Assembly: GCA_016208165.1 (NCBI GenBank)
Contig: JACQYL010000001.1
Location: 8,099 to 72,098, forward strand
DNA length: 64,000 nucleotides
Reading direction: 5' to 3'
Origin: Deltaproteobacteria bacterium
GTDB lineage: Bacteria; Desulfobacterota; Desulfarculia; JACQYL01
The position numbers and the translations under genes are program-made. Within the stretch, counting starts at the first letter, position 1. Each line of letters starts with the position of its first letter. This document shows, in pieces, positions 34,878 to 39,008 of this stretch. The notes under the pieces were generated by a model. It was not told the origin of the DNA. It saw only the letters and a list, made by a program, of their open reading frames with translations, and searched no databases.

Positions 34878-34881
34878 TCCG

Positions 34882-34892
34882 GGATCATGATC
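34882..34892. repeat. Left copy of the 11-bp GGATCATGATC repeat bracketing the 35-39 kb cassette
   Basis: It is identical to 38998-39008 and contains the palindrome GATCATGATC. Confidence 0.4.
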
Positions 34893-35640
34893 GACAAAAC
34901 CAACATCATCGCAGCGTTGCTGGAGAGATTGGACAACACGCCCATGGGGCATCATCCGGATATCCGGCCGTATAAAAGAAACTGATCGGTCGTGGTCGTG
35001 CGAAGGACCGAAACGGTTTATGAAATCATTGAAGAAGGATTCTTCTGCGACCGTTTTTCCGTGGAGGCCTCCGGGTTGAAGAAAAGCCTGCGGGTAATGA
35101 TCAAAAAGGAGTTTCCGCGAAGCCACAAAATATGGGTGTACGCCATGGAGCCGTATCCGCAGGAAGAACCGCACGGCACGGAGAGAAAGAAGATTTGAGG
35201 ATTGTTTCACAGATGGTCCGCTTGGGGCCACGGAAAGAGAGGCTGTTGGGTAAGCTAGAGAATCGGAAAGAAGTCAACATGCGGGCTTGCCCCCCGACAC
35301 AGTCCTCTCTCGATAAAATGATATGATTCCGACCTCCTTCCGGGAATTCTTTCCAGAAAGTCCTAAGCTTGCTTCTCTTGGCTTTTCTGGCTATAAATAT
35401 CGACGAATACGGGCTAATAATACAGCAAGGCCTTTTGCATAAACTCTTCATTAGGTTAGGAGCGTCATCGGGGGCAGCGAAGTAAGGAAGATCGTCCTTC
35501 TTGAAGTGATGCGATGTTCAAGGCGGGTACTCTGAAAAGACTGAACAATCTGTTCATCTACCGGGAGCGAATCGCCAAAAAGCTGTTTGTCTCGGAACTC
35601 TGTTACAACCGATCCCTTTAATAGAGCCAGGGGAACGCAC

Positions 35641-36816
35641 ATGAATCGATTTGAAAACCTTCAAGAATTAGAAATAGACACTGAATCGGCATGCTCCGAT
35701 TCCGCCCCAGAAGACGGTGGTGTTGAACCCGAGGAAGTGGAGGGAGACGAGCCCATAACACAGCCCTTCGATCCCACAAAGACGCAGATCATCACTTCAT
35801 GGCCGACGGTTAGCCTCTTGGTGACGAGGATACAAGAGGGAGAAATCGATCTGTTCCCAAGTTTTCAGAGAAAGGCGGACCTCTGGTCGCCAGCCCAGAA
35901 AAGTCGCCTGATAGAATCATTACTGCTTCGCATGCCCCTGCCCTCTTTCTATTTCGACGCCACTGACGACGAAAACTGGGTCGTAGTGGATGGACTGCAG
36001 CGTCTTTGGACGTTACAGGAGTTTCTCCTAAGCGACATGAGGCTTCATCACCTCGAGTTTTTGATTAATTACGAAAATAGCATGTTCAAAGACTTACCCC
36101 GACACCTGCAGAGACGTATCGGAGAGACGCAGGTCGTTGCGCATCTCATTCAGCCGGGCACACCACCCCAGGTAAAGTTTAACATATTTAGGCGAATCAA
36201 CACGGGTGGATTAGTTCTCTCGGCCCAAGAGATCAGGCACGCACTGAATCAAGGGAATGCACCCCAATTCCTAAAGAAACTCGCGTGCTCGAAGGCTTTC
36301 TTAGAGGCGACCCAAGGGAGCGTGCGCCCCGATCGTATGGAAGATCAGGAATTTGTACTTCGTTTCATGGCTTTCACGATCGTTCCGTACCCTCAATATA
36401 AGGTAGCAGATCTTGATGGGTTTCTGCATGAACAAATGGCTAGATTGAACACCGTCGGAAATGATGAGCTCGAAGACCTAGAGGTGAGATTTCAACGGGC
36501 TATGAGAGCATCAAGGCTGATCTTTGGAAGACAGGCCTTCAGGAAAAGCCTTAGGGATGGGGTTTCGGCCTGGAGAAATCCCATCAACAAGGCCATCTTT
36601 GAGGTCTGGTCCGTCACTCTGGGCCAACTCACTGAAGATAAATTAGAACATTTAATCCACCGAAAAGATGACGTCATCAGTAGATTTATTGAGGTTTTGA
36701 ACACTAATGACGAGTTTGTCGCCGCGGTATCTCAAGGAACTGGGGACGTAAAGAAAGTGAAGCAGCGGTTTAAAACCGTTGCCAAACTTGTAGAGGATAT
36801 CCTCAATGCAAACTAA
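35641..36816 (+). CDS. DUF262 (ParB/sulfiredoxin-like NTPase fold) protein, cassette gene A
   Basis: DLFPSFQRKADLWSPAQKSRLIESLLLRMPLPSFYFDATDDENWVVVDGLQRLWTL shows the FQR and DGQQR-type (here DGLQR) motifs of DUF262. Downstream is RRINTGGLVLSAQEIRHAL. The N-terminal 40 aa are acidic. Confidence 0.8.
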   Translation: MNRFENLQELEIDTESACSDSAPEDGGVEPEEVEGDEPITQPFDPTKTQIITSWPTVSLLVTRIQEGEIDLFPSFQRKADLWSPAQKSRLIESLLLRMPLPSFYFDATDDENWVVVDGLQRLWTLQEFLLSDMRLHHLEFLINYENSMFKDLPRHLQRRIGETQVVAHLIQPGTPPQVKFNIFRRINTGGLVLSAQEIRHALNQGNAPQFLKKLACSKAFLEATQGSVRPDRMEDQEFVLRFMAFTIVPYPQYKVADLDGFLHEQMARLNTVGNDELEDLEVRFQRAMRASRLIFGRQAFRKSLRDGVSAWRNPINKAIFEVWSVTLGQLTEDKLEHLIHRKDDVISRFIEVLNTNDEFVAAVSQGTGDVKKVKQRFKTVAKLVEDILNAN

Positions 36817-37927
36817 TCACCTGCAGGCCATCCATCTAATGAATTTTAAGTGCTTCGAAGACCAGAAGGTTTCGCTTGCTCCGATTACCCTCCTCACAGG
36901 TCTCAACGGCATGGGTAAGTCAACAGTATTACAGAGCTTGTTGCTGCTTCGACAATCGGCCATGCGGAACGTGTTGGAACACTATGGTTTGCTACTGAAC
37001 GGCGATTTGGTGAATCTGGGCAGGGCAGGCGATGTGCTGTTCGAAGGTGCTCGAGACGAGCATATTGTTCTTGAATTGACCGTTGGCGGGATGCAGGAGT
37101 CCTGGAAATTCAGGTATGAGGATCCCCATGCGGACGTGCTGATGCTGGAAGAGGGACCAAAGGTCTTGCCTGAATGGGTGGTTTTCGGCAATCGATTCCA
37201 TTATTTGGCGGCTGAGCGCATGGGGCCACGAGAAATCTACGAGATCTCTGCCTACTATGTTCGCAAATTGCGACAATTGGGCGCAGATGGGCGATTCGCG
37301 GTGGCCTATCTTGAAGAATACGGAAAAAGCCTGCGGTGCCTCCAAGGGTTGCTGCATCCGAAAACCTCTGACTCGACGGAGGAAAATCTTTATTCACAGG
37401 TTAACTTGTGGCTGGGAGAAATCAGTCCTGGTGCGCGATTGGAACCGATTTCCTTCCCGGACATAGGCAAGACTTCGTTGAGGGTTTCCTTTCCTTCTTC
37501 TACCAAGGGGCTAATGTCCAGACCATATTCGACGCCCAATGTCGGCTTCGGTTTCAGTTATACGCTCCCGGTTCTTGTGGCCGTTCTGTCGTCTTCTTCA
37601 GGAGATTTGGTTCTCATGGAAAATCCGGAGGCACATCTGCATCCGCAGGGACAAGTGGCGTTGGGGCGACTGTTCGCACTCGCCGCGTCTGGCGGGATAC
37701 AACTCATTGTGGAGACTCACAGTGATCATATACTGAACGGAGTACGCGTAGAAGTGAGGGATGGTTGTATTGCCAGCGAGGATGTGCGCATTCATTTTTT
37801 CCAACGGAACCAGCCTGGTGGGCAGCATTTTGTGGAGTCTCCTCGGGTGGATAAGGATGGACGAATCGATAACTGGCCGGAAGGATTTTTCGATCAAACA
37901 GAGCGTCTCCTAATGGAATTGATTTAA
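36806..37927 (+). CDS. ABC-type/AAA_15-21-like ATPase with a DUF3696-like C-terminus, cassette gene B
   Basis: IHLMNFKCFEDQKVSLAPITLLTGLNGMGKSTVLQSL (Walker A); LVLMENPEAHLHPQGQ (Walker B / D-loop type); LIVETHSDHIL (H-loop); C-terminal NWPEGFFDQ. The start overlaps gene A by 11 nt. Confidence 0.8.
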   Translation: MQTNHLQAIHLMNFKCFEDQKVSLAPITLLTGLNGMGKSTVLQSLLLLRQSAMRNVLEHYGLLLNGDLVNLGRAGDVLFEGARDEHIVLELTVGGMQESWKFRYEDPHADVLMLEEGPKVLPEWVVFGNRFHYLAAERMGPREIYEISAYYVRKLRQLGADGRFAVAYLEEYGKSLRCLQGLLHPKTSDSTEENLYSQVNLWLGEISPGARLEPISFPDIGKTSLRVSFPSSTKGLMSRPYSTPNVGFGFSYTLPVLVAVLSSSSGDLVLMENPEAHLHPQGQVALGRLFALAASGGIQLIVETHSDHILNGVRVEVRDGCIASEDVRIHFFQRNQPGGQHFVESPRVDKDGRIDNWPEGFFDQTERLLMELI

Positions 37928-37945: not shown

Positions 37946-38902
37946 TTGCATCAGATATTGAACGAGTTGTCTTTCCAGAAGGTCTCTACGAGCGTAAAGG
38001 ATGCCCAGGAACGCATGCATATGCTCTTGCTCGTTTTCAAGGCCGTTGCTGATTGCGGTTCTGAGAAGATCCTTCGTACCAAACGAAACCTTATGTCCGA
38101 ATTGGTTGCTTCCCAATATACTGTCTCGCACTGGCTTCAGGACAGACGCGTGAACCGGGACGAACGGTTATTATTCAAGACCGTAGCAACGAAAGCCCCT
38201 TTTGTCGAGGAACTCTGGAACAAATTGGAATCAGACGACTTGGGCCTGCACGAATTCTATTTCCAAGGTCAAAAAGCTGAGGGTTTGGGCGTGGCTTATC
38301 TTGACGATACATGTGCTCTTTCCCTTGGAGGTGATCAGAGGTTCGAACAGGATCCCATTCAAGTCGTGTATCAAGTGATGTATGCCCTAAATAGTAGATT
38401 GGGATCCGAAACTGTGGAAGTCTGCTCTTTGAGTAACTTAGACCATGTATGCCGCCGTTGCGTATGGATTGGTGAACGTGCTCAAAGACAGGTCGTCGAT
38501 GGGGTCTCACTCTGGGAGCAAAAGGAATCTCTATTTCCTCGTCTCGCGTTTCTCCCTGCAACCAAGGCGCAAATTCAACAGTTATCGGGGCGTGAACCTC
38601 ATTTCCGCCAAGTTCTTAAACATCTTTTCATACTGAACAGTGCGATGAAAAAGTGGGCTGGAGGGCCGTACAACCCGGAAGGCATCGAATGGTCCGCAGA
38701 AAGCCTGTCTACAAGGACCAGCAAGAAACTTGCGGACGCCCGCAGGTTTTCTAATTCTAACGGTAACTTCGCAGTATATAATTACCACACGAAGATTAGA
38801 GGCATCAACTGGCGCATACACTTCCATCCTGATACTGAAAAACAGATCGTGACCATAGCATACATAGGACGACATCTGCCAACAGCCAGACACGGAAAGT
38901 AA
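37946..38902 (+). CDS. Hypothetical protein, cassette gene C (no recognised family; C-terminal RelE/ParE-like signature)
   Basis: 318-aa ORF 18 nt after gene B. The start is the TTG at 37946 or the ATG at 38015. The C-terminus ..FAVYNYHTKIRGINWRIHFHPDTEKQIVTIAYIGRHLPT resembles the terminal beta-strands of RelE/ParE/HigB toxins. Confidence 0.6.
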   Translation: MHQILNELSFQKVSTSVKDAQERMHMLLLVFKAVADCGSEKILRTKRNLMSELVASQYTVSHWLQDRRVNRDERLLFKTVATKAPFVEELWNKLESDDLGLHEFYFQGQKAEGLGVAYLDDTCALSLGGDQRFEQDPIQVVYQVMYALNSRLGSETVEVCSLSNLDHVCRRCVWIGERAQRQVVDGVSLWEQKESLFPRLAFLPATKAQIQQLSGREPHFRQVLKHLFILNSAMKKWAGGPYNPEGIEWSAESLSTRTSKKLADARRFSNSNGNFAVYNYHTKIRGINWRIHFHPDTEKQIVTIAYIGRHLPTARHGK

Positions 38903-38997
38903 AAGCAGCCGACTCAAGTTCAAGACTTCCATTCTTTTTTTTGCAGAAGCGGAACAGCTATTCGGTTTCCGATTGGGATCTCAATATTTACCTGCCA

Positions 38998-39008
38998 GGA
39001 TCATGATC
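38998..39008. repeat. Right copy of the 11-bp GGATCATGATC repeat bracketing the cassette
   Basis: It is identical to 34882-34892 and sits within the 14-bp palindrome AGGATCATGATCCT. Confidence 0.4.

Follow-up and report, generated by a model that had tools for sequence, protein, structure and literature searches.

Menshen (NsnABC) is a three-gene anti-phage system in which NsnA is regarded as the sensor, NsnB as the transducer, and NsnC as the effector, according to an analysis of 1997 loci by Li, Tan, Basu, Corbett and Zhang (NAR 2025, PMC12065111; Li et al. 2025 below). In that work, NsnC was described as an inactive PIN-like N-terminal domain joined to an effector domain; 15 such effector domains were distinguished, nine of them BECR (Barnase/EndoU/Colicin/RelE) RNases, and type I Menshen with the combination inPIN1+PB-BECR1 was the commonest and presumably the ancestral form. 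PB-BECR1 was described as a BECR/RelE-like RNase with an H-R-H triad, and an AF3 model of an NsnB4-NsnC2 complex showed a pair of DUF3696 domains clamping the PIN-like domain. The only system with experimental defence, as cited in the same paper, is that of Solibacillus silvestris StLB046, which protects against the phages T2, T4, T6, and Fado and in which mutation or deletion of the DUF262 gene abolishes defence; the NsnC of this archetype carries an inPIN11 N-terminal domain together with PB-BECR1.

In the current study, we analyzed a three-gene cassette from a different organism, a deltaproteobacterial MAG, within a 64,000-nt stretch of DNA (the window). As judged by profile matching, the cassette is a type I Menshen system, because all three genes match the PADLOC Nsn profiles (Table 1). 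The locus contains an NsnA with a ParB/DUF262 domain, an NsnB with DUF3696 encoded directly downstream, and a third gene for a protein with a PIN-like N-terminal domain and a C-terminal effector. The three genes are co-directional, with an overlap of 11 nt between nsnA and nsnB and a gap of 18 nt between nsnB and nsnC. NsnB matches the Pfam families AAA_15 (7e-21), AAA_21 (4e-20), and DUF3696 (1.4e-16), and it is also matched by the PADLOC models AriA, PtuA, and GajA. The window locus fits the description of Li et al. 2025 on every point testable, and three genes that are listed in GenBank as hypothetical thereby gain an annotation.

Table 1. Coordinates, in the window, of the Menshen genes, the predicted domains of NsnC, and the conserved positions of its C-terminal domain.
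Feature	Position	Strand	Description
nsnA	35641..36816	+	ParB/DUF262 (GmrSD_N), proposed sensor; PADLOC NsnA 9e-137; Pfam GmrSD_N 1.8e-20
nsnB	36806..37927	+	ABC-type ATPase with C-terminal DUF3696, proposed transducer; PADLOC NsnB 4.4e-111
nsnC	37946..38902	+	318-aa putative effector, TTG start; PADLOC PDLC03879 1e-65 and PDLC03912 1.6e-64, both full length
NsnC N-terminal domain	37946..38521	+	residues 1 to ~192; predicted weakly PIN-like alpha/beta fold
NsnC C-terminal domain	38531..38899	+	residues 196-318, ~123 aa; predicted RelE/YoeB-like domain (BECR superfamily)
Quoted peptide	38633..38884	+	end of helix 2, insert, and beta-sheet of the predicted RelE-like domain; exact string match
E252-S253	38699..38704	+	in the insert; E252 is E in 151/161 (94%) and D in 9, S253 is S in 153/161 (95%)
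H281	38786..38788	+	codon CAC; H in 160/161 (99%)
R290	38813..38815	+	codon CGC, WRIHF strand; R in 161/161 (100%)
H310	38873..38875	+	codon CAT, GRHLPT after the last strand; H in 130/161 (81%), K in 29/161 (18%)

The start codons of two of the genes required attention. The mechanically called nsnA ORF opens at TTG 35587, while ATG 35641 is preceded by AGGGGA; in the contig of a close relative (L083), nsnA is called at 391 aa, and the PADLOC NsnA HMM alignment begins only at residue 43 of the longer version. ATG 35641 is thus likely to be the true start, and NsnA is probably a protein of 391 aa with the acidic N-terminal loop of type I Menshen. For nsnC, the GenBank protein (P0001) has 293 aa and begins at M26. 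Upstream of M26 lie a conserved N-terminal strand and the motif N6-E7-L8-S9, which is 86-97% conserved, and the NsnC homologues and HMMs align from residue 1-4 (the PADLOC HMM from residue 2). Because these conserved elements and the HMM alignment precede M26, the deposited protein is 25 aa too short and TTG 37946 is the required start, which corrects the start codon of nsnC. An identical NsnC protein is on record for a deltaproteobacterial MAG, labelled as hypothetical.

The cassette forms a low-GC insert of about 4 kb set among housekeeping genes, with 49.5% GC against 55-57% in the flanks. Two M16 peptidase genes adjoin it on one side, and on the other an alpha/beta hydrolase gene (Abhydrolase_11, 6e-46), located 226 nt downstream of nsnC, is followed by an RND efflux operon. 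The insert is bracketed by a 14-nt direct repeat, CC[G/A]GGATCATGATC (13/14 identical), at 34879-34892 and 38995-39008 of the window, one copy lying 2 nt past the stop codon of an M16 peptidase gene and the other 93 nt past that of nsnC. Chance alone would yield about 1.7 such matches in the 4.6-kb region, and the repeat may be either a coincidence or a trace of insertion. An empty insertion site was not found in L083 (88% nucleotide identity), where the flanks are the same as those of the window, and promoter/terminator and tRNA scans around the insert were uninformative. Upstream of nsnA, a small conserved ORF (34941-35198, + strand) encodes 86 aa in L083 and is 72% identical at the aa level to its counterpart in the window, where it is broken by an in-frame TGA so that a 68-aa ORF from GTG 34992 remains. 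No Pfam family matches this ORF, and no counterpart was found at 80 other Menshen-type loci.

The original prediction had drawn attention to the C-terminus of nsnC, where it read a RelE/ParE/HigB-like toxin signature. The peptide quoted there (LNSAMKK...GRHLPT, 84 aa) is genuine, as it corresponds exactly to residues 230-313 within the 318-aa ORF. The end given for the flagged region, 38902, coincides with the final base of the stop codon, while its start, 38620, lies 13 nt 5' of the peptide and out of frame, the in-frame codon beginning at 38621. The motif is likewise present: W289-R290-I291-H292-F293 on a predicted strand is followed by a turn and then by I302-V303-T304-I305 and I307-G308-R309-H310 (I-V-T-I-A-Y-I-G-R-H). 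Judged by conservation, the WRIHF and IGRH elements are no chance pattern, because R290, H281, G308, E252, Y306, and H310 are conserved in 161 homologues.

Structure prediction provided the main evidence on the nature of this region. We consider it probable, on the basis of the models, that the flagged stretch is the beta-sheet half of a RelE/YoeB-like endoribonuclease domain of about 123 aa (BECR superfamily, RelE-like group) at the C-terminus of NsnC. The template-free AlphaFold2 model of whole NsnC has a mean pLDDT of 90.8 and a pTM of 0.76, and residues 196-318 modelled alone from a 47-sequence alignment gave a pLDDT of 94.1 and a pTM of 0.87 with unchanged secondary structure. The predicted elements are, in order, a strand (200-202), a helix (204-211), a long helix (218-236), an insert of about 40 residues bearing E252, S253, and R266, three strands (280-284, 289-296, and 301-309), and the GxHLPT tail. 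In the model, a short strand, a helix, a core helix, an antiparallel sheet, and a C-terminal tail are therefore all present, and this order agrees with the RelE-like topology of pre-strand, pre-helix, helix, sheet, and tail defined in a BECR classification preprint (bioRxiv 10.64898/2026.08.28.747851). The same preprint describes a further Menshen BECR family, BECR-Tox2, with an unstructured N-terminal extension, a KH motif, and neither pre-strand nor pre-helix; this identity was ruled out for NsnC, the model of which has the pre-strand 200-202 and the pre-helix 204-211 and which lacks a conserved KH dipeptide.

Structural comparison of the modelled C-terminal domain gave match scores of 8.7 and 8.7 for two YoeB structures, 8.3 for an archaeal RelE, 8.0 for both YafQ and E. 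coli RelE, 7.8 for HP0892, 7.4 for ParE, and 7.1 for HigB. The top 23 matches all belong to the RelE/ParE superfamily and are followed by the CARF-RelE protein Cami1 at 5.8, with the distant BECR RNases BrnT, RNase Sa, CdiA, and colicin E5 at 3-4. The Foldseek search, which had been named as a check on the original prediction, places the same RelE/ParE-type proteins first (probability up to 1.00, target-normalised TM 0.54-0.68), though with weak E-values, the best being 1.2e-2 and none reaching 1e-3. These results support, at the level of the model, the view that the third gene ends in a RelE/ParE/HigB-like toxin fold, which serves as the effector of the cassette. The domain had been placed in the last ~90 aa, which cover only its second half; it rather spans residues 196-318, because the preceding strand and two helices belong to the fold.

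Profile searches behaved differently. Pfam and NCBIfam gave no significant match for the NsnC protein, and neither phmmer nor a profile hmmsearch against PDB sequences found a match for NsnC or its C-terminal domain. Pfam likewise had no significant match among 47 C-terminal domains, ParE_toxin appearing in 2/47 with a best E-value of 0.14, and none of 85 full-length relatives matched a PIN or RelE-type Pfam model. In hhalign, the C-terminal domain profile aligned with E. coli YoeB, YafQ, and a YoeB profile at a probability below 1%; the YoeB profile is too shallow (Neff 1.4), because all of its 120 listed matches are at least 82% identical. The RelE/ParE link of this domain is detectable by structure only, and the signature first read by eye was a correct visual cue that has no statistical support in Pfam, NCBIfam, PDB phmmer/hmmsearch, or hhalign.

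The remainder of NsnC, which had been described as an N-terminal domain of about 230 aa of unknown nature, is shorter, about 190 aa, and has a weakly PIN-like predicted fold. Window NsnC probably carries the common inPIN1 type and not the inPIN11 of the archetype. Several acidic positions of this domain are conserved in the NsnC family, namely E7 (96%), D66 (93%), D72 (89%), E103 (89%), and D121 (70%), and they bear on a disagreement in the literature: NsnC PIN domains are inactive according to Li et al. 2025 (PMC12065111), whereas a 2026 preprint argues that the PIN domains of some Menshen effectors keep the metal-binding site. NsnC could accordingly be a dual nuclease, or the PIN-like domain could be the real nuclease, in which case the RelE-like domain would chiefly target the protein by binding RNA or the ribosome. 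The conserved acidic residues, the PIN-like fold, and the retained metal site proposed in the 2026 preprint all speak for this reading, which we regard as distinctly unlikely.

For the preferred reading, an endoribonuclease at the C-terminus, the conserved residues are of particular interest. Over the 161 aligned homologues, H281 and R290 are nearly or completely invariant, H310 is H or K in 99%, and E252 is E or occasionally D (Table 1); G308 (99%), Y306 (90%), and R266 (86%) are also conserved. The mutation targets originally suggested in WRIHFH and GRH are thus narrowed: R290 and H310 are conserved, as are H281 and E252, while H292 (H in 91/161, Y in 61), H294 (H in 12/161), and R309 (R in 31/161) are variable. 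H281, R290, and H310 are putative first, second, and third members of an H-R-H catalytic triad. The H281/R290/H310 conservation, which is a matter of sequence, is the feature described for PB-BECR1, and the C-terminal domain, as judged from this description, most probably belongs to that family.

In the order of elements in the model, E252, H281, R290, and H310 sit on elements that correspond to catalytic positions of YoeB and YafQ. By this order, E252 is a candidate general base like Glu46 of YoeB. From secondary-structure order only, E252/R290/H310 may correspond to E46/R65/H83 of YoeB and H281/R290/H310 to the YafQ set (H50, H63, D67, and H87), and the same element order suggests that E252, H281, R290, and H310 cluster in space. 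Catalytic RelE-type RNases typically show such a near-invariant Glu/His/Arg/His(Lys) set, which is not known as a feature of ParE.

These considerations bear on the output of the cassette, for which an mRNA interferase and a gyrase poison had been offered side by side. A ParE-like gyrase poison would share the fold and block DNA replication. The RNase members YoeB, RelE, YafQ, and HP0892, however, all score above every ParE, the near-invariant E/H/R/H(K) set lies on the sheet and the C-terminal tail, and related NsnC domains were classed as RNases by Li et al. 2025 (PMC12065111), so that a gyrase poison appears very improbable. The RNase is therefore favored, because the E252/H281/R290/H310 set is conserved and ParE scores below YoeB, RelE, YafQ, and HP0892. 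One structural point could count against an RNase acting at the ribosome, as the insert of about 40 aa and the tether to a 190-aa domain could hinder entry into the ribosomal A-site. No experiment on the RNase activity of this type of NsnC was found in the Menshen literature searched.

The distribution of the family was examined in other genomes. A word-indexed search returned 13 NsnC relatives. When 1.84 billion cluster representatives were searched exhaustively by HMM, 3809 of them matched at E<=1e-3 and, of these, 1050 at E<=1e-30; the best 150 of these matches are nearly all 305-330 aa long and match over their full length. The NsnC HMMs match 85/85 sampled family members. Scanning one genome per GTDB species with the 13-sequence alignment yielded 80 loci; in 50 of them, NsnA, NsnB, and NsnC are colinear and both domains of NsnC are related to those of the window. 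At a further 6/80 loci the same C-terminal domain follows a different N-terminal domain, still downstream of NsnA-NsnB; NsnA is missing or cut by a contig end at 5/80, NsnB is truncated or absent at 7/80, and the C-terminal domain occurs without NsnA/NsnB at 12/80. The C-terminal domain is thus linked to NsnA and NsnB across many genomes, and the domain shuffling seen among the 80 loci is as described by Li et al. (PMC12065111). At five loci, cyanobacterial and others (L057, L058, L063, L064, and L071), a full nsnA accompanies a truncated or missing nsnB and an nsnC reduced to its C-terminal RelE-like part, and these look like decayed Menshen cassettes.

That nsnC is instead a classical type II toxin-antitoxin toxin adjoining ATPase genes by chance, for which the RelE/ParE fold itself would speak, is scarcely credible, as no antitoxin-like small gene was found adjoining it, the downstream gene encodes the hydrolase, the sole small upstream ORF has neither a Pfam match nor a counterpart at the 80 other loci, the domain is fused to a 190-aa N-terminal domain, and the gene is colinear with NsnA-NsnB at 50/80 loci. 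A classical toxin-antitoxin module is effectively refuted by this gene context, nsnC being the last of a three-gene operon with no adjoining antitoxin.

Proteins of about 530 aa that end in the RelE-like module of NsnC were also observed in Actinoplanes, Dactylosporangium, and a Dehalococcoidia MAG (L077, 4621-6213, + strand; L078, 4735-6333, + strand; and L079-L082), with the C-terminal pattern ES…R.F…H.K…RIH…IGYVG.HLPTANF; those from Actinoplanes and the Dehalococcoidia MAG are among the 12 loci without NsnA/NsnB. The proteins at L077 and L078 are matched by PADLOC HEC-07 (1e-25 and 4e-21) and, over the C-terminus, by the NsnC HMMs; therefore, the effector module is common to Menshen and a single-protein candidate defence family. 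Apart from this C-terminal module, the HEC-07 candidates differ from NsnC: each is a lone protein of about 530 aa, its N-terminal region is unrelated, and NsnA/NsnB are lacking. A bolder reading, in which the PIN-like domain is alive through an E7/D66/D72/E103/D121 metal site, NsnC is a dual nuclease, and the RelE-like module shared with HEC-07 is a portable, antitoxin-free suicide RNase silenced in cis or by the ATPase, seems unlikely to us.

The mechanism proposed here for NsnC as a Menshen RNase follows Li et al. 2025, and our data contribute the gene identities, the operon order, the modelled fold, the conserved residues, and the linkage to NsnA/NsnB. NsnA, through its ParB/DUF262 domain, would sense phage DNA, while a tetramer of the NsnB ABC ATPase would hold NsnC by its PIN-like N-terminal domain through the DUF3696 of NsnB. 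An ATP-dependent conformational change or release may then turn on the C-terminal RNase, which would cut RNA at the E252/H281/R290/H310 site. As with YoeB, YafQ, and RelE, mRNA that is being translated would be the likeliest substrate, and the cleavage would block protein synthesis of the phage and possibly of the host. We infer catalysis, substrate, ribosome dependence, control by NsnB, and the abortive-infection outcome from the features described above.

NsnC as an inactive PIN domain joined to a RelE-like RNase has already been published (Li et al. 2025, PMC12065111), and the window locus is one more instance of it. Existing defence-system HMMs already recognise this NsnC at E 1e-65. The locus gives independent support, on a distant member, for the published prediction that the output module of Menshen is a RelE-like RNase.

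[quoted passage not shown] Cami1, the CARF-RelE protein of type III CRISPR-Cas, is switched on by cyclic oligoadenylate via its CARF domain, whereas NsnC is partnered by a ParB-like protein together with an ABC ATPase. Septu (PtuAB), PARIS (AriAB), and Gabija (GajA) rely on an ABC-type ATPase to hold or regulate a nuclease effector, as proposed for NsnB and NsnC, an analogy drawn by Li et al. (PMC12065111). The effectors of these three systems, however, are HNH or Toprim nucleases and not RelE-like RNases, and the ParB/DUF262 protein is an addition of Menshen.
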